A stretch of DNA of 64,000 bases. Source: Clostridia bacterium. GTDB taxonomy: Bacteria; Bacillota; Clostridia; Oscillospirales; CAG-382. The stretch spans positions 14,517 through 78,516 of the forward strand of contig JAFYPA010000083.1 of assembly GCA_017560085.1 (NCBI GenBank). The letters are read 5' to 3'. The position numbers and the translations under genes were made by a program. How positions within the stretch are numbered: the first letter of the stretch is position 1; each line of letters starts with the position of its first letter. The notes beneath the pieces were generated by a model. The model did not search any database and had not been told where the DNA came from. It worked only from the letters and a program-made list of their open reading frames with translations. This document shows positions 8,156 to 62,509 of this stretch, in pieces.

Positions 8156-8170
8156 TTTTGATTCCTTTCG

Positions 8171-8203
8171 ATTATTTCAGATTATTTCAGATTATTTCAG
8201 ATT
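8171..8203. repeat. 10-bp tandem repeat (ATTATTTCAG x3.3) spanning a stop codon
   Basis: Read directly: attatttcag attatttcag attatttcag att. The third unit contains the TAA stop (8192-8194, minus strand) of the GH36-like gene. Confidence 0.9.
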
Positions 8204-10213
8204 GTAGAAATACAGCTTCGCACATCTCTTTTCGGGGAGCGTGAGCGTGATTCTGCCGTTTTCCGTCTCGTATTCTTCCGTTGTGTCCTTGTCGCAAAGA
8301 ACAAGCTCTTTTCCTTCGGAGAAGGCAAAATCAAGGGCTATATCGCTGTCCTCGCATTCCTCCTGACGGAATACGAAGAGAATGCCATTTTCCGCTTCCG
8401 CATCGAAATATGTGTATGCCGTGAAGCCCTCAAGGTCGTTTTCGTGATGCCACGGCGTAAGTGTGTAAAATTCCTTCAGAAGATATCCGTTTATCTCCTT
8501 CCATTCCTTGATGCCTGCTCTCAGAATATCGAAATTCTGTGTCGGGTCGTAAACAAGCTGTGTGTCAACATTGAGAGATGGGAGATAGGACGCACGCCAT
8601 ATGTACATATCGCTGTTACCCTTGCCCGAAAGCTCGCCGAGCTTCTCTCTTGTGCAGGCACCACAGAAGGGAATCCATTTATTGAAGGACGAGGTCTGCG
8701 AAAGACGGATGCCCGTGGATGTTCTGTCGTGGTCGGAACGCAGAAGCGGTACTCCGACGTGCATTGATTCAAGGTCGTTTCGACCGCCACCGCCACAGCA
8801 GGAGTCCACAAAGGCACATCCGCCGGTGCTCTTGGTTGCCTCTATTGCCTTGTCCCACAGACGGTAGTGACCGTCAAGACAGGTGATTTCCGTGTAGCCG
8901 TCACGGTTTTCGCCCTGAAGATTATCGCCCGTTGTCCAGTATTCACATCTTGAGCCGTTGTCCTCACGGAGCATATCCACCTTTGTCTTTTCCAGCACGG
9001 ATATGATTCTGTCCTCTGTCCATCTGTAGCATTCGGGGTCTCCGAGATTGCTTGTGAAGGTGTTGTCATTGAGATTTGTGGGAGCAAATGCCCATTCCTT
9101 TCTGTAGCCGTAATTTTTCTCAAGCTCCTCGGGCATACATACCTTTTCCGTGGCAAACCACAAAAGAGTTCTCATTCCGTTGTCCCTTGCAAATTCCACC
9201 GATTCACGGAAGGTGTCATCGGGCCATTTTTCATAGTCAAATTCCCAGGTGCCGAGAGTATCACGCCAGTCGTGTCCTTTTTGGAAGGGGATGGGACTTG
9301 TCTTGTCGGGAGCGACATACCATCCCGCATCCACCCAGCGGAAGTCGACCTTTATATCCTCAGCCATCATCTTTTCAAGCGACGGCTTCCACGTGCTGTA
9401 TCTTTCGGAAATGCTTCCGTCGGAATTGGGATATCCCGTATCGAATGCAAGACAGCAGGTTGAGAATGGCTTCATCGGAGTGCCGTTGCCGTCAAAGGGC
9501 GGAAGAATGTTTGTGATATAATGGCTTCTCCAGTAGTTTGTGGCGTAGTCCTCATTTCGTACCGTGTAATCCGCAATCGAGTAAAGAGCCGTTCTTATTT
9601 CCTCGTTCGGATTGAGATATGTCTTAAGATTTCTCGGTGAGCATCCTTCATAAATAACCTTTCCGTCCTCATATGTAAAGGAAGCCTTCCAAGTACCCGA
9701 CCATCCGAGTGCAAGCATTGTTCCGCCCTTTTCGTGCTCTAAATTGAAATAGGGAAAGAATTCGTGCGTTGCTCTGCCCGTGTTACAGTCAAAGCTTACA
9801 TTTTCGCTTTTGAGGTCTGTGGAATAGGGACGGTAGTAGTTGACGTGGTCACCGAGAATGCCCTTGAGAATGGGGGAATCCGTGGTAAATACCATCTTTG
9901 TGCCGAGCTTTTCTATTATTCCGCATTTTGTACCCGATGTGTTTCTGATTCGTGCAACCCATTCCGTTACGCCGTGGGTATAGTAGTGCTTCAGCGTTAC
10001 CTTGAAGGTGAGCGTGCTTTTAAAATCAAAGGTAAGAACCGCGGTTTCCGTGTCGCCCTTTCTTTCGGAGGCCTTGTCCGTAAGAGTAAAATCCTCACCG
10101 AAGCCGATATATTCCTTGCCGTCGTATGTGAATGTGAATGGAATCCTTTGGGGGCATTGAAGCATTTCAAGGTAAGCCATGTCCGAGGCGGGATTTCTGT
10201 AGTTTCTTATCAT
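8192..10213 (-). CDS. GH36-like glycoside hydrolase (divergent subgroup), cytoplasmic
   Basis: VDSCCGGGGRNDLE and MLREDNG parallel the GH36 motifs of 5283..7259. Same length class. No signal peptide. Confidence 0.6.
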   Translation of the reverse strand: MIRNYRNPASDMAYLEMLQCPQRIPFTFTYDGKEYIGFGEDFTLTDKASERKGDTETAVLTFDFKSTLTFKVTLKHYYTHGVTEWVARIRNTSGTKCGIIEKLGTKMVFTTDSPILKGILGDHVNYYRPYSTDLKSENVSFDCNTGRATHEFFPYFNLEHEKGGTMLALGWSGTWKASFTYEDGKVIYEGCSPRNLKTYLNPNEEIRTALYSIADYTVRNEDYATNYWRSHYITNILPPFDGNGTPMKPFSTCCLAFDTGYPNSDGSISERYSTWKPSLEKMMAEDIKVDFRWVDAGWYVAPDKTSPIPFQKGHDWRDTLGTWEFDYEKWPDDTFRESVEFARDNGMRTLLWFATEKVCMPEELEKNYGYRKEWAFAPTNLNDNTFTSNLGDPECYRWTEDRIISVLEKTKVDMLREDNGSRCEYWTTGDNLQGENRDGYTEITCLDGHYRLWDKAIEATKSTGGCAFVDSCCGGGGRNDLESMHVGVPLLRSDHDRTSTGIRLSQTSSFNKWIPFCGACTREKLGELSGKGNSDMYIWRASYLPSLNVDTQLVYDPTQNFDILRAGIKEWKEINGYLLKEFYTLTPWHHENDLEGFTAYTYFDAEAENGILFVFRQEECEDSDIALDFAFSEGKELVLCDKDTTEEYETENGRITLTLPEKRCAKLYFYNLK

Positions 10214-15280: not shown

Positions 15281-15330
15281 AATGTGCAATGTGCAATAAA
15301 ATGTTGAAAAATGTTATAAAATGCAATAAT
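15281..15330. repeat. degenerate heptamer tract (AATGTGC AATGTGC AATAAAATGTTGAAAAATGTTATAAAATGCAATAAT)
   Basis: Read directly. Starts 17 nt after the stop of the Tet(M)-like gene and has the same AATGNNN phase as the other arrays. Confidence 0.5.
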
Positions 15331-20795: not shown

Positions 20796-21037
20796 ATAGT
20801 GAAGAGTGAATGGTGAATAGTGAATAGTTTAGGTTAATTTGCTTCGCAAATTTTCATTTGATTTAAAATTGAAGAGTGAAGGTTTTGAAGTGAATGCGTT
20901 GAATTTCGGATAAAACAATTTAAATCCAAATCGAAGAAAGCGAAGCTTTCTACATCAAAGCGAAATTCCGCAGGAATTTCTTAAGGAAAATCTTCGATTT
21001 TCCGGTCTCTTCACTATTCACTCTTCACTATTCACTG
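20796..21037. repeat. intergenic cassette copy A: heptamer-array inverted termini plus four triloop hairpins
   Basis: Left arm 20796-20828 is (GTGAAKA)x4; right arm 21007-21037 is its inverted counterpart. Hairpins: 20836-20852 (AATTTGC-TTC-GCAAATT), 20935-20951 (AGAAAGC-GAA-GCTTTCT), 20962-20980 (GAAATTCC-GCA-GGAATTTC), 20985-21003 (GGAAAATC-TTC-GATTTTCC). Confidence 0.8.
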
Positions 21038-21040
21038 ATA

Positions 21041-23632
21041 TCAGTTCGTGTATTTCTTAAGCTCGTACAGCCTCTGAAGTGCCTCAATCGGCGACATTGT
21101 GTCGAGGTCTGTGTGCTTTATTATGCTGTAAACCTTGTCCTTTGCCAAATCGTCAAAGGAGAGGGTAGGCTCGTCTGTCTGCTTTTTTGCACCCTTGCCG
21201 AGCGGAATGCCTACGCCGTTTTCAAGGCTTTCAAGGACCTCCTTGGCTCTCTTTATTACTTCATTCGGTACGCCCGCAAGCTTTGCTACCTCGATACCGT
21301 AGCTGTCGTCTGCGGCACCCTCCACTATTTTGCGAAGGAATATAAGCTCGTCGCCTCTCTTTTTTGCGGCGATGGAGTAGTTTACTATGCAGGGGAAGGT
21401 TTCGGAAAGCTCGGTAAGCTCGTGATAGTGGGTCGCGAACATTGTCTTTGCTCCGATTTTCTTGCCCGCTGTGTATTCGGCAATGGCTCTTGCAATGCTC
21501 ATACCGTCATAGGTGGACGTGCCTCTGCCGATTTCGTCGTATATAATGAAGCTCTTTTTTGTTGCGTTTGCGAGAATGTATGCCACCTCGTTCATTTCAA
21601 GCATAAAGGTGGACTGTCCCGAAGCAAGGTCGTCGCTGGCACCCACTCTTGTGAATACCTTGTCCACAATACCGATTCTTGCGCTCTCGCAAGGAACGAA
21701 CGAGCCTATCTGTGCCATAATTACGATAAGCGCATTCTGTCTCATATAGGTGGACTTACCAGCCATATTGGGACCTGTGATAAGCATAATTCTGCGGTTG
21801 CCGTCAAGATATGCGTCGTTGGGAACAAACATCTGATTTCCCGACATATACTTCTCGACAATGGGGTGTCTGCCGCCTCTTATTTCAAGCTTGTCAGAAT
21901 AGTCAACCTCGGGGCAGACATAGTTGTTCTTGCTTGCAACATCCGCAAGGGAAACGTAAACATCAAGCTTTGCAAGAAGCGAAGCCGTTCTCTGAAGCCT
22001 TACCACATTTGCGGAAATAAAGGAGCAAAGCTTTACGAAAAGCTCATACTCAAGTGCAACAATCTTGTCCTGTGCACCGAGCACCTTGGATTCCATATCC
22101 TTGAGCTCCTCGGTGATGTATCTTTCGCATCCCGTGAGAGTCTGCTTTCTGATGTAGCGAAGAGGTACCATATCGATATTGGACTTTGTGACCTCTATAT
22201 AGTAACCGAATACACGGTTATAGCCGATTTTAAGATTCTTAATGCCCGTAGCTTCCTTTTCGGCGGCTTCAATCTGGGTAATCCAGCTCTTGCCCTCGCC
22301 CATAATGCTGCGAAGCTCATCCACCTGCTCGCTGTAACCCTCACGGATAAATCCTCCTTCACGCACGGAGAAGGGAGGATTGTCGCAGATTGCGGCGTGG
22401 ATTTCGTTCTTTATGTCGGAAAGCTCGTCGATATTCATATAAAGCTCGCAAAGCTCGGGGCTTGTCATTGTGGCAAGAAGCTCACGGATTCTCGGAAGAT
22501 GCTCGCAGGTGGTCATAAGAGCCACAAGGTCTCTGCCGTTTGCCGTGCCGTAGACTATCTTTGTAAGAAGTCTTTCGATATCGTTGATTCCCGCAAGCTC
22601 AAGCTGAAGCTCCTCCTTTGCGATAAAGCTTCCGAAAAGCTCCTTTACCGCCTCCTGACGGGTGTTTATGAGATTTACCGAAACAAGGGGCTGCTCAACC
22701 CACTTACGAAGAAGTCTTGAGCCCATAGCAGTCTTTGTCTTGTCAAGCACCCAGAGAAGTGTGCCTCTCTTTTCGCGGGTACGCATAGCCTCGCAAAGCT
22801 CGAGGTTTCTTCTTGTGTTTACATCTATCGCAAGGAACTGCTCGTTGTTGTAATATGTAAGCTTGTTGATGCTTGTAACATCGTGCTTCTGTGTTTCCGT
22901 AAGGTAATCAATAAGTGCGGAAAGCGCAATAAGTGCGGGTGATTCGGGGTCTATACCGTACTGTGAAAGGTAATCCTCGCCAAACTGCTTTGTGAGAATA
23001 TCAAGTCCCTTTGTGAATCTCTCGCTGTCGTTTGCACCGAGGAACGCACCGAGTCTGCCTCTTATGTAGTCCGCAAGCTCGTCAAGGCTTTCCTCATCAA
23101 TGTTTGTAATGATTTCACTGGGGTTATAAACCGCAAGCTCTCCCATAAGCCTTGATATTATGTCACCCTGTGAAAAGTCTGTTGCATAAACCTCCGCCGT
23201 GGAAATATCCGCTACCGCAAAGCCCGCACGACTACCCTCAATGTACATAGCACAAAGGTAGTTGTTTTTGCCGTCAAGAAGAAGGCTTCCCTCGGTAACG
23301 GTACCGGGCGTAATGATTCTTACAACATCGCGCTTTACAATGCCCTTAGCCGTCGCGGGATCCTCCACCTGCTCGCAGATGGCAACCTTATACCCGCGGC
23401 TGACAAGCTTCGCAATATATCCTTCCGCACTGTGATAAGGAACACCGCACATAGGCGCACGCTCCTCCATACCGCAGTCACGCCCCGTAAGAGTAAGCTC
23501 CAGCTCACGGGAAGCGGTCTTGGCGTCATCAAAGAACATTTCATAAAAGTCTCCGAGACGGTAGAAAAGAATATGATCCTTGTATTGGTCCTTGACTTCA
23601 AAGTATTGAAGCATCATGGGAGTGTAGGGCAT
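21041..23632 (-). CDS. mutS: DNA mismatch repair protein MutS
   Basis: MLQYFEVKDQYKD N-terminus and Walker A ITGPNMAGKSTYMRQ. Start set at Met14 (23632). The upstream MHYALCI extension is read-through into a heptamer repeat. Confidence 0.95.
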   Translation of the reverse strand: MPYTPMMLQYFEVKDQYKDHILFYRLGDFYEMFFDDAKTASRELELTLTGRDCGMEERAPMCGVPYHSAEGYIAKLVSRGYKVAICEQVEDPATAKGIVKRDVVRIITPGTVTEGSLLLDGKNNYLCAMYIEGSRAGFAVADISTAEVYATDFSQGDIISRLMGELAVYNPSEIITNIDEESLDELADYIRGRLGAFLGANDSERFTKGLDILTKQFGEDYLSQYGIDPESPALIALSALIDYLTETQKHDVTSINKLTYYNNEQFLAIDVNTRRNLELCEAMRTREKRGTLLWVLDKTKTAMGSRLLRKWVEQPLVSVNLINTRQEAVKELFGSFIAKEELQLELAGINDIERLLTKIVYGTANGRDLVALMTTCEHLPRIRELLATMTSPELCELYMNIDELSDIKNEIHAAICDNPPFSVREGGFIREGYSEQVDELRSIMGEGKSWITQIEAAEKEATGIKNLKIGYNRVFGYYIEVTKSNIDMVPLRYIRKQTLTGCERYITEELKDMESKVLGAQDKIVALEYELFVKLCSFISANVVRLQRTASLLAKLDVYVSLADVASKNNYVCPEVDYSDKLEIRGGRHPIVEKYMSGNQMFVPNDAYLDGNRRIMLITGPNMAGKSTYMRQNALIVIMAQIGSFVPCESARIGIVDKVFTRVGASDDLASGQSTFMLEMNEVAYILANATKKSFIIYDEIGRGTSTYDGMSIARAIAEYTAGKKIGAKTMFATHYHELTELSETFPCIVNYSIAAKKRGDELIFLRKIVEGAADDSYGIEVAKLAGVPNEVIKRAKEVLESLENGVGIPLGKGAKKQTDEPTLSFDDLAKDKVYSIIKHTDLDTMSPIEALQRLYELKKYTN

Positions 23633-23650
23633 GGGAAGGTCCTTTCTGAG

Positions 23651-23849
23651 AATGCATAATGCATAATGCATAATGCATAATCAATGTTAATTTGCGTTGC
23701 AAATTTTCATTTTTGAATTTTATTTATTTTAGTTTGAATTTTAGAAATATTTTTGATTGCACACAATACCAATTCAAATTAAATTGAAGGAAGCGAAGCT
23801 TCCATCCACGATTATGCATTATGCATTATGCATTGTGAATTGTGCATTC
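23651..23849. repeat. intergenic cassette copy B: (AATGCAT)4 left arm and inverted right arm, sharing a core with copy A
   Basis: Left arm 23651-23681; right arm 23811-23849 (ATTATGC x3 then ATTGTGAATTGTGCATTC). Hairpins 23689-23705 (AATTTGC-GTT-GCAAATT) and 23789-23803 (GGAAGC-GAA-GCTTCC) correspond to hairpins 1 and 2 of copy A. Confidence 0.8.
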
Positions 23850-23861
23850 GCACTGACTCCG

Positions 23862-33705: not shown

Positions 33706-33741
33706 AAAAGAATGCATAATGCATAATGCATAATGCATAAT
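33654..33741 (+). repeat. direct repeat DR1 (glgD 3' end, stop codon, A-run and (AATGCAT)4AAT array)
   Basis: 55 nt (33654-33708) are identical to 34038-34092. The array 33711-33741 is identical to the left arm of cassette B. Confidence 0.9.
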
Positions 33742-34089: not shown

Positions 34090-34110
34090 AAAGAATGCAT
34101 AATGCATAAT
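34038..34110 (+). repeat. direct repeat DR2 (second copy of the glgD 3' end plus (AATGCAT)2AAT)
   Basis: Identical to DR1 over 55 nt, 384 bp downstream. One A fewer in the A-run and two fewer heptamers. The following CTTCGTTTAATTAAA resembles 33776-33792. Confidence 0.9.
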
Positions 34111-45398: not shown

Positions 45399-46154
45399 AT
45401 GGAAATAGTATTCCTCGGCAAATCAAAATGGATTCCCGATGAGGTGGGCGGAGATGCTCCCTGCTTTGTCGTTGACGGTAAATATCTTGTCGACCTCGGA
45501 TATAAGTCGGCACTCAAGCTTGCGGATATCGGCATAAGCCCCGCAGAAATAAACCACGTTTTCGTGACCCATTGCCACCACGACCATATACTCGGTATGC
45601 CTCTTTTTCTTTTCTATAAGTCCCAGAAAAACGGCGGACTTACCCACATCTACGGCATATCCGACGAAATAGCCGACACGGTAATGCGTGCCGAATCAAT
45701 GTGCCTTTTTGATAAATACTATAAGGACATAAAATTCACCGAGGTACACGAGCTTTGCGGCGGTGAAGCCTTTGAGGTTGACGACCTTAAGGTAGAATGC
45801 ATGAAGGCAGACCATTCCATCCCCGCTCTTTGCTATAAATTCAGAATAGGCGACAAAACCCTCGGTATCCTCGGCGACTCAAGATACAAGCCTGAAATTG
45901 CCGAATTCTTCAAGGGCTGTGATGCCGTAGTCCACGAGGTATCAATGGGCATAGGCTCTCCCGTACACGAGCGATTCGCAAACGGTCACTCCTGCGCATA
46001 TGATGCCGCAAGAACCGCGGTGGAAAGCGGAACAAAAGCAATCTTCCTCGTCCACTGCTCCCTCGACAGCGCCGAAGGCTGCATAAGCGCAATAAAGGAA
46101 TCCTATGGTGGCGATGTAATAGTCCCCGACCTCGGCAAAAAATACATAATCTAA
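45399..46154 (+). CDS. MBL-fold metallo-hydrolase
   Basis: HxHxDH motif in VFVTHCHHDHILG; 251 aa. Confidence 0.8.
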   Translation: MEIVFLGKSKWIPDEVGGDAPCFVVDGKYLVDLGYKSALKLADIGISPAEINHVFVTHCHHDHILGMPLFLFYKSQKNGGLTHIYGISDEIADTVMRAESMCLFDKYYKDIKFTEVHELCGGEAFEVDDLKVECMKADHSIPALCYKFRIGDKTLGILGDSRYKPEIAEFFKGCDAVVHEVSMGIGSPVHERFANGHSCAYDAARTAVESGTKAIFLVHCSLDSAEGCISAIKESYGGDVIVPDLGKKYII

Positions 46155-46197
46155 AACAAAATGGACGAGACCACAAAATCCCGCCCATTATCTTTTT

Positions 46198-46230
46198 AAT
46201 TGTGCATTGTGCATTGTGAATTGTGCATTC
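46198..46230. repeat. solo heptamer array (ATTGTGC x2, ATTGTGA, ATTGTGC) abutting the proA stop codon
   Basis: Read directly. The 21-mer TGCATTGTGAATTGTGCATTC is identical to the end of the right arm of cassette B (23829-23849). Confidence 0.8.
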
Positions 46231-47487
46231 TTATCTTGTGTGTCCGTTTCCGACAATAACATACTTGTAGGTAGTAAGCTCGCAAAGCCCCATCGGACCT
46301 CTTGCGTGAAGCCTCTGAGTGGAGATACCCATTTCACATCCGAGACCGAATTCACCGCCGTCTGTAAATCTTGTGGAGGCGTTGATGTAGAGCGAGGAGC
46401 TGTCTATGCTTCGTGTGAAGATGTCAGCCGTTTCGCTGTTTTCCGTTACAATTGCCTCGCTGTGACCCGTGGAATGTGCTCCGATGTGGTCTATAGCCTC
46501 GTTTACATCATTTACTACCTTAACTGCAAGAATGTAATCAAGGAACTCGGTATCAAAATCATTTTCTCCCGCACTTGCTCCGTCAATTATTGCGGATGCC
46601 TTCTCGCAAAGACGAAGCTCCACGGGGATTTCTCCTCGCTCGGCTCTGTCCTCTGTGAGGGCTTTTTTTATTTTCGGGAGAATTTCCGGAGCGATTTCCT
46701 CGTGTACCAGACAAACCTCGCAGGCATTGCACACGGAGGGTCTTGATGTCTTGGCGTTGTAGAGAATCTTTATTGCCTTTTCGGTGTCCGCGTCCTTGTC
46801 AATGTAAATGTGGCAGATACCCGTGCCCGTTTCAATACAAGGCACCTTGGCGTTTTCGGTACAAGCCTTTATGAGGCCCGCACCGCCTCTGGGGATGAGA
46901 AGGTCGATATATCCTACACCGGTCATAAGCTCTGTTGCGCTCTGCCTTGTGGTGTCGTCAACAAGGGAAACAAGGTTTTCAGTAAGTCCTACGGATGAAA
47001 GTCCCTTTCTCATAGCATTTACAATAGCCTTTGAGCTGTTGTAAGCCTCTTTACCTCCGCGGAGAATACACACATTACCCGACTTCAGACACAGAGCCGC
47101 CGCATCGCTTGTAACATTCGGGCGGGATTCGTAGATAATTGCCACAACGCCCATGGGAACAGCCTTCTTGCGTATTTCAAGACCGTCCTCACGGATGTAT
47201 TCGGAAAGAACTCTCGTGCAGGGGTCGGGAAGTCTTTTAACGGCAAGAATTCCATCTGCCATAGCCTTGATTCTGTTTTGCGTAAGGCTGAGTCTGTCTA
47301 TCATAACATCGGAGATTTTGCCTCTTGCGTTTTCTACATCAGTAGCATTTGCAAGAAGAATTTCGTCCGTGTCCTCAAGGAGTGCCTTTGCCATAGCCTC
47401 AAGAGCATAGTTCTTTGCTTCCTCTGTCAGAAGAATTGCCGCCTTTTTAGCCTCTTTGGCATTCTGCATTATTTCAAGTGTTGTCAT
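46231..47487 (-). CDS. proA: gamma-glutamyl phosphate reductase
   Basis: Full-length ProA (aldehyde dehydrogenase fold; ...NASTRFTDGGEFG...). Confidence 0.95.
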   Translation of the reverse strand: MTTLEIMQNAKEAKKAAILLTEEAKNYALEAMAKALLEDTDEILLANATDVENARGKISDVMIDRLSLTQNRIKAMADGILAVKRLPDPCTRVLSEYIREDGLEIRKKAVPMGVVAIIYESRPNVTSDAAALCLKSGNVCILRGGKEAYNSSKAIVNAMRKGLSSVGLTENLVSLVDDTTRQSATELMTGVGYIDLLIPRGGAGLIKACTENAKVPCIETGTGICHIYIDKDADTEKAIKILYNAKTSRPSVCNACEVCLVHEEIAPEILPKIKKALTEDRAERGEIPVELRLCEKASAIIDGASAGENDFDTEFLDYILAVKVVNDVNEAIDHIGAHSTGHSEAIVTENSETADIFTRSIDSSSLYINASTRFTDGGEFGLGCEMGISTQRLHARGPMGLCELTTYKYVIVGNGHTR

Positions 47488-47502: not shown

Positions 47503-48270
47503 TTATTTACAGCTGTAAAAGCGTGTGCCGAAGGGGATATTGTCAACTATGTTGTAAAGGATATCGGGATTCTCACCGTTGGCGATAATCATATCCGTGC
47601 CCGCCTCTGTCGCCATCTGTGCCGCACGGAGCTTTGTTTCCATACCGCCCGTACCGAGCTTTGATCCCGCACCGCCCGCAAGAGCGAGAATTTCGGGAGA
47701 GATTTCCCTTACCTCCTCTATAAGCCTTGCGTCGGCATTCTTGTGGGGGTCTGCCGTGTAAAGACCGTCAATGTCCGAGAGAAGCACAAGCAGGTCAGCA
47801 TTAGTCTCTACCGCAACGATTGCGGAAAGAGTATCGTTGTCGCCGATTACGATTTCTTCCGTGGAAACGGTATCGTTTTCGTTTATGATGGGAAGCGCAC
47901 CGAGCTCAAGAAGCCTTGACATTGTGTTGTGGAAGTTGCTTCTTCTGTGCTCGTTGTCAATATCGCTCTTTACGAGAAGCACCTGCGCTACCGTGTGATT
48001 GTATTCCGTGAAAAGCTTGTCGTAGGTGTACATAAGCTCGCACTGACCGACAGCTGCCGCCGCCTGCTTTGTGGGAATGTCCGACGGCTTTTCACCGAGG
48101 GAAAGCTTGCCGACACCCATACCGATGGCACCGGAGGATACAAGCACGATTTCGTTGCCTGCATTCTTAAGGTCGGAAAGCACCTTGCAAAGCTTTTCAA
48201 TTCTTCTTATATTCATTCTGCCGCCCGCGTGGGCAAGGGTCGATGTACCGACCTTAACTACTATTCGCAT
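47503..48270 (-). CDS. proB: glutamate 5-kinase (short form without a PUA domain)
   Basis: MRIVVKVGTSTL...VLVSSGAIGMG amino-acid-kinase fold; 255 aa. Confidence 0.95.
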   Translation of the reverse strand: MRIVVKVGTSTLAHAGGRMNIRRIEKLCKVLSDLKNAGNEIVLVSSGAIGMGVGKLSLGEKPSDIPTKQAAAAVGQCELMYTYDKLFTEYNHTVAQVLLVKSDIDNEHRRSNFHNTMSRLLELGALPIINENDTVSTEEIVIGDNDTLSAIVAVETNADLLVLLSDIDGLYTADPHKNADARLIEEVREISPEILALAGGAGSKLGTGGMETKLRAAQMATEAGTDMIIANGENPDILYNIVDNIPFGTRFYSCK

Positions 48271-48297
48271 AAGTTCAGTCCTTTCGGAATTGCTCTT

Positions 48298-49752
48298 TTA
48301 CATAAGAGTTATTCTTTCAAAGTGTGAGCCCCATTCATAGTCGGAGGCGTAGTCGGGATAAAGCTCCTTTGTTACATAGAACATAACGTCCTTCGCACTC
48401 TCACCGAATATATTGGGAGAAACCTTGAGCTGTGTGGGAGGCACGGTAAGCTCGATACTGCGAAGCTTCTTGCAGTTGTCAAAGGCACCGTCGCGGAAGG
48501 AGGTGAGATTGGAGTTGTCGCTGACAAAGATTCTCTCGAGAGTCTCACTGCTCGAGAATGCATCCTTCTCTATCGCAACCACGGGAAGTCCGTTGTAGGA
48601 TATGGGCATTGTGAGAAGCTTTTCTCTTGTACCCTTTGCGGTAAGTCCTACGAGCACCGCAACCTTGGCACCTGAGATTTCCTCTTCCTTGTATTCGAAG
48701 TAGCCCGTGGTATCATCGTTTACGCTGAAGCCGAAGAAGTCCGCAGGTCTTACGGGAGCCATAGGGAAGGAGAGGGAAAGATTTACACTTGTGTCACCGC
48801 CCGCTCTCATAAGGTCCTTTGCCAGAAGCGAGGTTCTGTATTCAACGCCCGTGTCGTTAAGGTGGTAGTTTGTATCGAAGAAGTATTCCTCGTCCATTAT
48901 GTAGTCGTTGACATTGCTTATAATCTCAAAGTCAAGCTTTTCGCAAAGTGCTGTATAGAAGCCGTATATGCTGTCCTCGGTTGTGTCCTTTGTAAGTCCG
49001 CCCGCATTTATGGGAGGGAAGCTGAAGTAAACCTTTGCACCCTTCTTTTCAGCATCCCTTGCGTACTCGTTGAGGTACTGTGCGAATTCATCGGTAATAA
49101 GCTCGGGAGAAAGGCTTACAAGCTTGTTTTCGTCAACCATTGAAAGCATAGTATTGTACTTTCTCTCGTAGGAGATATCACCGAGGGCGTTGAAGGAATC
49201 CGCTCTGTAAACACCTTCGGGATTGGGCGTTGTGCCTGTGGCGAAAAAGGTCTTCTTGTTCTTGTAGTATTCGGGGAAGGAGGCAAGCACCTTCATAAGG
49301 TCGTCCGAGGGAAGCTTTGAAATCATGGAGTAATCAGCCTCGGATGCCTGCCACATATTTCTTGCGTCAAAGTGAAGGGAATAGGTCTGCGGGTCTGTTT
49401 CGGGACAGATAATAACTATGTCGCCATTGCCTACAGCATCGCGGGAAAGGTCAAGCATAGCCTTTGTTCCGAGGTCTGCGTAAAGACCGAAGTTCACACA
49501 GGGCTTGCCCGTGTATTTTTCAAGTCTCTCACTGTCAAGACCGAATGCCACGTTACTTCCGCCGACAACTATGATTTTCTCGCCCTCAACAGAATAAAGT
49601 CTGTCGTACTTGGGCGCAAGTCCCGCAAGGAAGGTGTTTTCGTACTGTGCGGGAATCATAGCGGACATAAGCGCAAGAAGTATTACCGGCAAAAGGAGAA
49701 CTGCCGAAAAGGGGATTATGTATTTCAGTATTGCTTTAAGTGCATTTTTCAT
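48298..49752 (-). CDS. membrane-anchored DltD/SGNH-like protein fused to a C-terminal BspA-type LRR domain
   Basis: N-terminal TM segment; VVGGSNVAFGLD (Ser block) and DTNYHLNDTG (D/H block) resemble the DltD/AlgX-type esterase fold. The C-terminus VAIEKDAFSSSETLERIFVSDNSNLTSFRDGAFDNCKKLRSIEL is LRR_5-like. Confidence 0.5.
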   Translation of the reverse strand: MKNALKAILKYIIPFSAVLLLPVILLALMSAMIPAQYENTFLAGLAPKYDRLYSVEGEKIIVVGGSNVAFGLDSERLEKYTGKPCVNFGLYADLGTKAMLDLSRDAVGNGDIVIICPETDPQTYSLHFDARNMWQASEADYSMISKLPSDDLMKVLASFPEYYKNKKTFFATGTTPNPEGVYRADSFNALGDISYERKYNTMLSMVDENKLVSLSPELITDEFAQYLNEYARDAEKKGAKVYFSFPPINAGGLTKDTTEDSIYGFYTALCEKLDFEIISNVNDYIMDEEYFFDTNYHLNDTGVEYRTSLLAKDLMRAGGDTSVNLSLSFPMAPVRPADFFGFSVNDDTTGYFEYKEEEISGAKVAVLVGLTAKGTREKLLTMPISYNGLPVVAIEKDAFSSSETLERIFVSDNSNLTSFRDGAFDNCKKLRSIELTVPPTQLKVSPNIFGESAKDVMFYVTKELYPDYASDYEWGSHFERITLM

Positions 49753-57829: not shown

Positions 57830-58261
57830 ATGAAGGTACTCGGACAGTTCAAAAAGTTTTTCGGCGTAAGCTCTGTGCTTTATACCTGCCTTTCCTTTGC
57901 GATTATATTGCTATATAAAAAAGGAAACCCGGTTAAGTGGGAATGGTATCAAATGGATGTTGGAAATTTGTTTTTCGATATCCTTGTATTTGCCGCTATC
58001 GCAGGTGCGGTTATAACACTTGTTGACCTCATCCCGAAGCTTCCCGCGGTGGTAAAGAGCCTTATAAAGCTCGTGCTTATCTATGCGGATTTCTACTTCT
58101 GGATGCTCAGAGGCAACGGCAACGCAAGCCATATTATGATTATGAGCACAATCTATGTTGCGGTATTTTTCGCAATCACGGGCATCGGTGCTCTTCTCGG
58201 TCTTATCGGCAAAAAGAAGAAGAACGATGAATACAACAGCGTTTACGGCGAGGATAAGTAA
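57830..58261 (+). CDS. membrane protein (4 TM segments)
   Basis: Start at Met34 of the ORF track (57830), which has a GGAGGA RBS; 143 aa. Confidence 0.55.
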   Translation: MKVLGQFKKFFGVSSVLYTCLSFAIILLYKKGNPVKWEWYQMDVGNLFFDILVFAAIAGAVITLVDLIPKLPAVVKSLIKLVLIYADFYFWMLRGNGNASHIMIMSTIYVAVFFAITGIGALLGLIGKKKKNDEYNSVYGEDK

Positions 58262-58293
58262 TATATTTTATACGGAAAGAAAAGAATAACCAA

Positions 58294-59553
58294 ATGGAAA
58301 AAATGAAATTTGCCGCCACCTGTCTTTTCGGACTTGAAAGGCTTGTCGGCGAGGAAATAGACGCCCTCGGCTACAAAAGACTCGAAACCATTGACGGCAG
58401 AGTCTACTTTGAGGGCGACATTACGGCGATTGCCCGCTGTAATATGTGGCTCAGATGTGCAGAGCGTGTATTTATAGTTGCGGGTGAATTCGAGGCAACC
58501 ACCTTTACCGAGCTTTTTGACGGTACAAAGGCGATTCCGTGGGAAAACTACATTGGAGAAAATGATGCATTCCCGAATTCGGGTCACTCCATAAAGTCAC
58601 AGCTTGTGAGCATCCCCGACTGCCAGAGCATAGTTAAAAAGGCTATGGTGGAAAGACTCAAGAGCGTTTACGGTGTTGACTGGTTCGAGGAAAACGAAAC
58701 CAAGGTAAGAATCGAGTTCTTTATCCTCAATGATAAGGCAACTCTTATGATTGATACCTCGGGCGAGCCTCTCTTCAAGCGAGGCTACAGAGAAAAGGCG
58801 GCGGAAGCCCCTCTTCGTGAAACTCTTGCGGCGGCACTCGTTAAGCTTTCAAGACCCAGAGAAAACGTTATCACCTGGGACCCCTTCTGCGGAAGCGGAA
58901 CAATCGCCATTGAGTCTGCGCTCATTATGACAAACACAGCCCCCGGCATAAGAAGACGCTTCTCCTCCGAGCATTACAGATGGATACCCAAGAAGGTATG
59001 GCAGGATGCAAGAAAGGAAGCGGCGGATGCGGTAAACCTTGACACAACCTTCAAGGCGTGGGCATCAGATATCGACCCCGAATGCGTACAGCTTGCAAAG
59101 GACAACGCCAAGCGTGCGGGAATGGAGAACTACATCAAGATTTTCCAAAAGGACGCACTTTCAATTTTCGACAACGGCGAGAGAACAACCATCGTATGTA
59201 ACCCGCCCTACGGCGAAAGACTCGGCTCAATCCGTGAAGCAAGAGAGCTTTACAAAAAGCTCGGAAAGACGCTTTCGACTCTCGTTCCCCCGTGGCAGAT
59301 GTACCTTCTTACAAGCGAGGAGGAATTCGAAAGGCTTTACGGCAAGCGTGCAAACAAGGCACGAAAGCTTTACAACGGTATGATAAAGTGCTATCTCTAT
59401 CAGTACTTCAAGGATTTTGGAGACAAGAAGCCCTTCGAAGGCAAGAAGCCGCATGATAAGGACTTCGGCGATAAAAAGTCACACGGTGACAGGAAGCCCT
59501 TTGGCGAGAAAAAGCATTTTAACAAAGACGAAAAAAGAGGCGAAAAGAAATGA
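58294..59553 (+). CDS. THUMP-domain class I SAM-dependent RNA methyltransferase with a Lys-rich repeat tail
   Basis: THUMP N-terminus, DPFCGSGTIAIE (motif I) and NPPYGERLG (motif IV). C-terminal FGDKKPFEGKKPHDKDFGDKKSHGDRKPFGEKKHF repeats. Confidence 0.85.
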   Translation: MEKMKFAATCLFGLERLVGEEIDALGYKRLETIDGRVYFEGDITAIARCNMWLRCAERVFIVAGEFEATTFTELFDGTKAIPWENYIGENDAFPNSGHSIKSQLVSIPDCQSIVKKAMVERLKSVYGVDWFEENETKVRIEFFILNDKATLMIDTSGEPLFKRGYREKAAEAPLRETLAAALVKLSRPRENVITWDPFCGSGTIAIESALIMTNTAPGIRRRFSSEHYRWIPKKVWQDARKEAADAVNLDTTFKAWASDIDPECVQLAKDNAKRAGMENYIKIFQKDALSIFDNGERTTIVCNPPYGERLGSIREARELYKKLGKTLSTLVPPWQMYLLTSEEEFERLYGKRANKARKLYNGMIKCYLYQYFKDFGDKKPFEGKKPHDKDFGDKKSHGDRKPFGEKKHFNKDEKRGEKK

Positions 59554-60727: not shown

Positions 60728-60746
60728 GAATCAAAACTGCGTTTTG

Positions 60747-60854
60747 AAAATGCACAATGCAAAATGCAAAATGCAAAATTGATGTGAAAATTTCTTCGAA
60801 ATTTTTATTTTATTGAAATCGCCTGCGGGCGAGGGGAATCGGGGGGTTCCCGAT
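60747..60854. repeat. partial intergenic cassette (copy F) inside the groES-groEL spacer
   Basis: Array AAATGCACAATGCAAAATGCAAAATGCAAAAT (60747-60779). Hairpins 60787-60805 (AAAATTTC-TTC-GAAATTTT), 60819-60832 (TCGCC-tgcg-GGCGA) and 60838-60854 (ATCGGG-gggtt-CCCGAT). Confidence 0.65.
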
Positions 60855-60865
60855 ATATTCCCTAA

Positions 60866-62509
<1,644 letters not shown>

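Follow-up and report, generated by a model that had tools for sequence, protein, structure and literature searches.

Bacteria have been known to carry tandem heptanucleotide repeats since about 1990, and intervening sequences (IVSs) of 23S rRNA with their S23p gene since 1993. To our knowledge, no mechanism is accepted for either. The STRR heptamers of heterocystous cyanobacteria, reportedly described by Mazel et al. in 1990, may be grouped with the TAACTGA repeats considered below. Here we examine a heptamer array that follows the stop codon of proA at 46198-46230 of a 64-kb window, which is the whole stretch of DNA analyzed, from contig C73 of a Clostridia assembly (G000; 3.10 Mb, 128 contigs, 46% GC). 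The original prediction, made on the window alone, was that every such array abuts a stop codon in the sense of the upstream gene. The association extends over the genome without being universal, and the arrays are the outer ends of a modular inverted-repeat element. About half of our confidence goes to the reading that the stop-codon rule mainly reflects this outward-facing architecture, together with residence in a dispensable sliver of the spacer and better retention of stop-side arms.

The closest described arrays are the G-rich heptamers of Xanthomonas (GGGAATC) and Nostoc (GGGGA(C/T)T), which have ~4 units, a preference explained there by G-quadruplex formation (Rehm et al. 2015, PMC4692102). 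They lie between open reading frames (ORFs) that are aligned, on the coding strand within 50 bp of the stop codon or on the non-coding strand upstream of ORFs, and also form inverted pairs. The placement rule was thus already known for these genera. The arrays here are likewise dispersed, ~4 units long, enriched in co-directional spacers, depleted in divergent ones and found in inverted pairs. In both cases length and sequence vary among close relatives, and no function has been assigned. On the other hand, the units here are A/T-rich (AATGCAT, AGTGAAT), with no G-quadruplex possible. Because A/T-rich units obey the placement rule without quadruplex potential, the G-quadruplex explanation cannot be general. 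The host here is a Firmicute, and its arrays come with a linker and a variable-stem hairpin that PMC4692102 does not describe.

A second likeness is with the 23S rRNA IVSs of Coxiella burnetii and Leptospira. In Coxiella, a 28-bp terminal stem is cut by RNase III, and a strain-variable number of tandem heptamers precedes the S23p ORF (Warrier et al. 2016, PMC4990558). IVSs have a stem of ~28 bp from terminal inverted repeats, a PF05635 (S23p/IVP) gene in the loop and variable heptamers in the region of the 5′ arm (PMC4990558); the present elements resemble them in their predicted long stem and heptamer arms, and in some copies a PF05635 gene lies between these arms. However, the copies studied here lie between protein-coding genes and not in rRNA helices (helix 25 or helix 45 of 23S rRNA), most of them are gene-less or half-elements, and RNase III cleavage may be proposed for them by analogy with the IVSs. 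We know of no IVS that is dispersed to ~200 sites per genome.

Less close are the TAACTGA repeats of Beggiatoaceae, cyanobacteria and Bacteroidetes, which mostly precede start codons by a few nt and hardly ever occur in inverted orientation (MacGregor 2015, PMC4679880). They resemble the present arrays as abundant intergenic tandem heptamers with 2-6 copies per set that abut gene boundaries for an unexplained cause, and differ from them in their start-codon side, in being hardly inverted and in that no hairpin module has been reported. Further heptamer sets are given in a Geobacter genome paper (PMC2700814). A link of arrays to a linker-hairpin module or to S23p is found in none of PMC4692102, PMC4679880 and PMC2700814. 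What the present genome contributes is the validity of the placement rule for A/T-rich units in a Firmicute, the membership of the arrays in a defined linker and hairpin module, and the S23p genes between such arms.

Placement was examined over the whole genome, with genes called by a codon-usage caller built for the analysis and starts refined by the Shine-Dalgarno (SD) sequence, not with curated annotation. A period-7 scan of the 3.1 Mb yielded 199 arrays, with AATGCAT (107), AGTGAAT/G (30), AATGCAC (26), AATGCAA (14) and AATTCGG (12) as the main units and a few others. The unit A(A/G)TGNNN given in the original prediction holds for most of these, with AATTCGG and TAGGAAC-type units falling outside. 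Perfect arrays numbered 147 at period 7 versus 0-22 for periods 4-12, and none occurred in a shuffled genome. Array lengths differ by whole units (24, 31, 38, 45 nt) with a mode at 31-33 nt (4.4-4.7 units, 111/199), that is, with a preference for about four units. G-tracts are absent from AATGCAT, AATGCAC, AATGCAA, AGTGAAT and AATTCGG, and none of these units forms a G-quadruplex motif.

Defined spacers hold 142 arrays. When each is read on the strand that gives ARTG (R, A or G), its 5′ neighbor is the stop codon of a same-strand gene for 82 and the start of an opposite-strand gene for 60. A same-sense stop lies within 8 nt upstream of 37 arrays, whereas 3.8 ± 1.9 are expected when each array is given a random place in its spacer with its orientation kept; within 20 nt, the count is 47 versus 8.9 expected. 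About 40% of the arrays with a definable neighbor are within 20 nt of a stop. A second distance mode, at 15-28 nt from the stop, arises where a mini-hairpin intervenes. Within 25 nt of stops, 54 arrays are sense and 3 antisense, while near start codons 20 are antisense and 1 is sense. Of the 60 arrays that neighbor an opposite-strand start, 20 cluster at 16-25 nt from it, immediately outside the SD. Other arrays follow a terminator T-run or a mini-hairpin, or lie in long spacers. Divergent spacers are depleted of arrays (12 versus 38 expected, p = 2e-6).

Thus the tight and oriented association with stop codons stands, and a genome-wide scan against random placement, named beforehand as the test, found neither positions nor orientations random. 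It also survives the removal of two-armed copies, as co-directional spacers hold 33 sense and 12 antisense arms that are truly solo (p = 0.0025). What fails is the word ‘every’, because 60 of the 142 arrays neighbor an opposite-strand start and others follow T-runs or mini-hairpins; even in the window, two left arms adjoin mutL and mutS starts. In a second species (G001; 212 kb sampled), the tendency is similar, with 9 of 29 arrays within 16 nt of a same-sense stop.

The arrays are one part of a larger unit. Read in the sense orientation, 124/142 arrays end in a common phase, ...AAT, which is followed by Y-R-A-K-G-T-T-G-A (linker YGAGGTTGA). A perfect hairpin of at least 5 bp is found within 48 nt of 157/189 arms versus 26 in shuffles. 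The hairpins begin at offset 7 in 96 cases, have 54 distinct stems and mostly a TTC loop, and are flanked by conserved YGAGGTTGA and TCTTCA. Extra modules can be intercalated, for example hairpins of a GC type (AAGACCGCWWGCGGTCTT) or an A/T type (GAAAATTTTTCGGAGAAAAATTTTT). The building block is an optional mini-hairpin, 3-6 heptamers (usually 4.4), YGAGGTTGA, a perfect 5-8 bp hairpin with a variable stem and a TTC loop, and an A/T-rich tail.

Two such modules facing each other make a cassette, in which the arrays point outward and the heptamer arms are the outermost, terminal inverted repeats. Among 33 facing pairs in the genome, the two arms have a common unit in 19 versus 11.5 expected (P = 2e-4). 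As RNA, paired arms would form a duplex of 25-31 bp. The residual spacers of two-armed cassettes are 13-60 nt, with 16-22 nt on the SD side. The arrays have the polarity of an inverted-repeat element and not of transcription: whichever gene adjoins, the ARTG strand faces away from it, which makes arrays sense at stops and antisense at SD sites.

At proA, a single arm is left in the following arrangement.

46198..46230, minus strand: solo heptamer arm with units AATGCAC, AATTCAC, AATGCAC, AATGCAC and AAT; it has no partner arm and no linker-hairpin module.
46231..46233 (read 46233-46231), minus strand: proA stop codon TAA, with a single G (1 nt) between it and the array.
46231..47487, minus strand: proA, gamma-glutamyl phosphate reductase of the Aldedh family (Pfam); proB adjoins.
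46150..46189, minus strand: terminator-like hairpin (46189-46160) with a U-rich tail, fold z = -3.4.

The array is followed by UAAAAAGAU and then by the terminator-like hairpin, which has 13 pairs before its U-rich tail. Since it lies between the proA stop and this terminator, the solo arm is inside the proA 3′ untranslated region (UTR). The 21-mer GAATGCACAATTCACAATGCA at its gene-proximal end recurs exactly in cassette B, whose right arm has it on the gene-proximal side (23841-23861), as had been noticed in the original prediction along with the lack of a partner arm. The exact 31-mer of the proA array has 12 copies in the genome, all with identical order of internal variants. The stop codon is at its ancestral position, because the protein ends at the same residue in six congeneric species. 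An empty site was sought in the 3′ flanks of these six species, which are unrelated and unalignable, and among strains, where 4/4 contigs have the identical arm. We read the proA array, with about even confidence, as a half-element, a single arm from a family of modular foldback repeats that has been amplified in this lineage. As a separate observation, proA of G001 (L002, contig C22) ends with TGA directly followed by ATGCAAAATACAAAAGCATGA, which resembles a decayed AATGCAA-type array at the same position.

The other arrays of the window are as follows.

15281..15297, plus strand: weak AATGTGC array (2.4 units), 17 nt past the stop of an EF-G/Tet(M)-like gene; the mini-hairpin TTCAGctcCTGAA intervenes.
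20796..20828, plus strand: left arm of cassette A with AGTGAAT/AGTGAAG units; adjoins the mutL SD and start (11 nt from the SD), antisense to mutL and not at a stop.
21010..21036, minus strand: right arm of cassette A, 4 nt past the mutS stop TGA, in mutS sense.
23651..23681, plus strand: left arm of cassette B, AATGCAT repeated 4.4 times, antisense to mutS and 17 nt upstream of its ATG.
23811..23861, minus strand: right arm of cassette B, AATGCAC, AATTCAC, three AATGCAT and AAT, beginning 13 nt past the stop of a YlbF/ymcA-like gene.
33711..33741, plus strand: arm with AATGCAT repeated 4.4 times, 5 nt past the glgD stop; a GC hairpin and then an AT hairpin lie downstream.
34094..34110, plus strand: short AATGCAT array (2.4 units), 4 nt past the stop of a small ORF that repeats the glgD tail.
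60747..60779, plus strand: AATGCAC/AATGCAA arm, ~21 nt past the groES stop; the mini-hairpin CAAAACtgcGTTTTG lies before it, and a linker and hairpin after it.

Seven of the window's arrays follow the stop of the upstream gene in the same sense, as originally described, with spacers of 17 (EF-G/Tet(M)-like), 4 (mutS), 13 (YlbF/ymcA-like), 5 (glgD), 4 (small ORF), 1 (proA) and 21 nt (groES); the distances first given agree within 0-2 nt. The two longest spacers, at the EF-G/Tet(M)-like gene and groES, each hold a perfect mini-hairpin between stop and array. When cassette B is folded as RNA, its arms are predicted to pair in a 25-bp perfect stem with 7 further pairs (z = -6.5). Rfam 15 at the gathering score gave no match in the whole 64-kb window.

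The original prediction had also set aside frame-independent stops as the general function of the arrays, and this was right. Although 140/194 arrays close all three frames, the AATGCAC, AATGCAA and AATTCGG families do not, and arrays that do so are not enriched next to stops (30/37 versus 72% overall).

Full-length relatives of the element carry an S23p/IVP gene between the heptamer arms, which is the architecture of 23S rRNA IVSs. G000 has seven PF05635 genes. One of them (C6:7191-7508) is inside a complete cassette that extends from 7 nt past the upstream stop to the next SD, in the order TAA, 7 nt, CTAGGAA-type array, AATGTTGA, the hairpin AAGCTTCGCTT, gene, hairpin, inverted array and SD of the next gene. 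At the orthologous site in a congener (G002) the order of parts is the same, and both arms consist of another unit. Directly upstream of three more G000 copies there is an array (AGTGAAT or AATGCAC) with linker and hairpin. The copy on contig C45 of G001 lies between an AATGCAT array and ATTATGC arrays, and in another relative (G016) the sole site with three AATGCAT units is 75 nt from the sole IVP gene. Over 11 relatives, period-7 arrays were found in 9/22 flanks of IVP genes versus 3/74 control windows (p = 5e-5); the remaining IVP copies are flanked by a variant alternating unit with mini-hairpins. While the gene is seen in the loop at C6 of G000, at C45 of G001 and in several relatives, it is absent from ~30 gene-less cassettes and from the proA solo arm. 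The S23p/IVP protein of G000 matches the Xanthomonas campestris S23p pentamer 2GSC (E = 2e-23), and the PDB sequence search gave S23p-type entries only. For a presumed kinship of S23p with the Avd proteins of diversity-generating retroelements (DGRs), a literature search yielded nothing of use.

A second flank style was also observed at S23p/IVP genes (L087-L090 and L094; G000 C35:13645-13941, C118:4997-5308 and C29:14591-14905). There, a 7-9-nt word (such as GCTAAAT or CATGAATTG) alternates with mini-hairpins of 11-13 nt and is then mirrored.

The family has expanded in one lineage and varies strongly within it. The pattern of three AATGCAT units has 176 matches in G000 and 30 in a single congener; two family members have 1-2, and 27 other relatives none. 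Strain contigs with identical flanking proteins differ in the presence, unit, hairpin and center of the element, and unit order varies between strain alleles. In the groES-groEL spacer (L013-L018 versus window 60728-60886, with identical GroES), strains have one of two non-homologous alleles, a solo arm of AATGCAA units or a cassette with two AGTGGAC arms; identity resumes at TAAGA and the SD only, the whole stop-to-SD spacer being exchanged. Four congeners have 36-50 nt at this place, two family members 11-12 nt, and three element-bearing genomes 159-356 nt. Upstream of an ACT-domain gene (L050-L059; region of G000 C36:28169-28815), four strains have a spacer of 18 nt, while in others elements fill a spacer of 339 nt; in the filled alleles, 36-39 nt separate the arrays from the stop. 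On the downstream side of this gene, a cassette keeps one conserved center with AATGCAT, AATGCAC or AATGCAA/ATTTTGC arms, both sides switching together, and in one strain the arrays are kept with different hairpins and center. A 24-nt deletion between TCGAAT repeats shifts an array from 27 to 3 nt past TAA (L058 versus L050). At a dCMP-deaminase locus (L044 versus L043; region of G000 C124:19943-20136), one strain has two extra mini-hairpins nested in the array-adjacent hairpin, and small palindromes therefore insert into one another. No strain polymorphism was found at two further loci.

How such elements could come to meet stop codons may be conceived as follows. Being the outward tips by construction, the arrays would be what any touched gene boundary meets, with the ARTG strand pointing away. 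Elements would survive only in the dispensable transcribed sliver from a stop codon to the next signal, either an SD or a terminator, and would be depleted in divergent spacers, which bear promoters. Turnover would be internal, by nested hairpin insertions and swaps of centers or tips, while small deletions trim the outer spacer, so that the tips stay pinned at gene ends. Half-elements would be better retained on the stop side than on the SD side, because the latter carries promoters and leaders, and this would account for the surplus of solo arms that are oriented like the upstream gene. Of the three explanations first offered for the association, namely target-site selection at gene ends, a function tied to termination or mRNA 3′ ends, and selection against insertion elsewhere, the data favor selection and retention, acting on an inverted-repeat architecture, and weaken the targeting and RNA roles. 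The inverted-repeat polarity, the fixed-phase linker and hairpin, the S23p/IVP-bearing relatives and the published rule for other heptamers had all been missed in that account.

Several results weigh against this reading. The sense solo arms lie within 7 nt of a stop in 22/33 cases, even where 100-500 nt of spacer follow. The 33:12 asymmetry of solo arms needs differential retention, which we infer, in a model of architecture plus selection. A polarity that tracks gene direction is equally expected from a function linked to transcription or translation. In 18 cases the mini-hairpin contacts the stop, not the array. The strain alleles compared gave neither a clean insertion junction nor a target duplication, nor an empty site whose flanks are conserved. 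As for the IVP genes, the automated test in G000 alone is marginal (arrays at 3/7 genes versus a 14% base rate, p = 0.06), because the C6 arms are too degenerate for the detector, and IVP copy number across relatives does not follow array number.

That the arrays are cis-acting RNA signals is rather unlikely in our estimate. Their placement in 3′ UTRs and intercistronic spacers would then be selected, and an A/U-rich, unstructured, phased platform by a hairpin would act in processing by endonucleases (RNase III at paired arms, or a cut of the RNase Y type next to the hairpin), in 3′-end stability, or in termination and re-initiation. Arrays between a stop and a terminator are probably transcribed, judging by location, and array-only spacers join a stop to the next SD (C11 8849, C65 11157). 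The units TAATGCA and TAGTGAA, read directly, give overlapping stop and start codons with 4-codon mini-ORFs in every frame, and perfect hairpin pairing is kept through the 54 different stems. Solo arms show a strong asymmetry with two-thirds of the sense arms close to stops, and follow gene direction irrespective of the replication proxy, 75% being sense (18:6 for leading-strand and 9:3 for lagging-strand genes). The proxy is GC skew, which is noisy and matches the gene-strand bias in 29/37 windows. In E. coli, REP sequences within 15 nt of stop codons reportedly affect translation (Liang, Rudd and Deutscher, 2015). Yet a selected signal hardly fits with strains that have identical flanking proteins and differ in presence, unit, hairpin and center, four of which have no element and a spacer of 18 nt where others have 339 nt, nor with so lineage-specific an expansion (176 matches here, 30 in one congener, none in 27 relatives). 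Moreover, the genes served share no common feature, units are used alike with or without start and stop codons, and the antisense class at SD sites would require a second function. We consider active homing, in which a trans-acting enzyme inserts one-armed units array-end first into the A/T-rich nt directly 3′ of stops and terminator T-runs, improbable. The sharp peak of distances at -4 to +8 nt, long spacers included, is what it predicts, and several arrays begin 0-4 nt past a terminator T-run. C is rare in the 6 nt preceding arrays (5-9 among 142), the first unit and the stop TAA share one phase in ~10 cases, and the groES spacer is occupied by different elements in different strains. However, an A/T-rich target motif is not distinctive and was rejected, as the first 10 nt past any stop in the genome are already 62-73% A+T. 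Stop-codon identity is irrelevant as well: TAA, at 24/37 array-adjacent stops versus 66% genome-wide, is not preferred over TGA, and TAA, TGA and TAG are used as in the genome. Neither a target-site duplication nor a clean junction is seen among the alleles compared, and arrays in the filled ACT-gene spacers are 36-39 nt from the stop. Nor does any candidate enzyme co-occur, whether a RAYT-like gene, a reverse transcriptase (none was found in G000-G002) or a recurrent ORF; no transposase or autonomous element recurs between distant facing arrays.

Birth in place by polymerase slippage, as Mrazek and colleagues proposed for heptamers, would make the arrays ordinary long simple-sequence repeats without any mobile element. 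Heptamers are indeed an over-represented class of such repeats in many bacteria (cited in PMC4692102), unit number here varies by whole units, and strain alleles differ in unit order. The module structure nevertheless largely refutes slippage, to which we give very little credence: the 12 identical 31-mers with a common internal variant order imply copying, the inner phase is fixed and followed by the conserved linker and hairpin, the inverted arms have matched units, and more than half of the arrays (111/199) fall in the narrow length mode. Spread of REP or REPIN sequences by a RAYT transposase is just as hard to credit. The elements are extragenic palindromes, often in inverted pairs, and like REP, BIME and REPIN sequences (PMC3116915, PMC3733652) they are short, form inverted doublets, occupy 3′ UTRs and operon spacers and are amplified by lineage. 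G000 also has a RAYT-like HUH tyrosine transposase gene between ruvA and ruvB (C21:6490-7026), scoring 76.9 bits versus the NCBIfam REP_Tyr_transpos cut-off of 80. But its flanks are without arrays or hairpin modules, and the two closest congeners with arrays, G001 and G002, lack the gene, so that RAYT and arrays do not co-occur in this genus. REP-type sequences lack heptamer arrays and have one conserved stem tagged with GTAG or CGTC, while the stems here are hypervariable (54 distinct) and without either tag. Two further candidates were rejected. Replication-oriented insertion, as by IS200/IS605, is argued against by a solo-arm polarity that is the same for leading- and lagging-strand genes by the noisy GC-skew proxy, and a classical MITE (miniature transposable element with inverted repeats) by the lack of target-site duplication at the junctions examined and of a transposase ORF recurring between facing arrays. 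Among MITEs, the Correia elements of Neisseria are transcribed, non-autonomous inverted repeats whose paired arms are RNase III substrates. The present elements are likewise non-autonomous inverted repeats in transcribed spacers; the unique-sequence terminal repeats, TA target duplication and single conserved sequence of Correia elements are not seen here.

A joint proposal involving the S23p pentamer is a long shot. Dispersed heptamer arrays (STRR, Xanthomonas, Nostoc and those here) could be the arms of one element class with the S23p/IVP pentamer as its protein. The toroidal pentamer would read 4-5 phased heptamers, one per protomer, and would either mobilize the element to just 3′ of stops or couple the insert to RNase III excision from operon transcripts. 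If so, the stop-codon rule would be a signature of homing or processing, left by a new kind of mobile element whose removal takes place in RNA. The two old puzzles, heptamer repeats and IVSs, in any case become testable at the bench through S23p binding to arrays, RNase III cutting of paired arms from mRNAs, and the landing of new copies at stops.

The elements also matter for assembly and annotation, accounting for many assembly breaks and for over-extended ORF starts. A contig end is within 600 nt of 46/199 arrays. Read antisense, arrays contain ATG with all three frames open (160/194 without a stop in any frame), and ORF finders therefore over-extend gene starts through them. One example is an 876-aa mutS ORF call beginning at 23671 (window 23631-23671).

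Finally, a conserved stretch of ~200 nt (…cacggaataccttcgccacttagaacggcaggaaggtaagcaacac…gcgagtgaagccaat…tcaaattttttgc) recurs downstream of solo arms in three long spacers of G000 (C47:~8170-8510, C39:~58240-58620 and C32:~47840-48350), which may be another repeat family or a structured leader.

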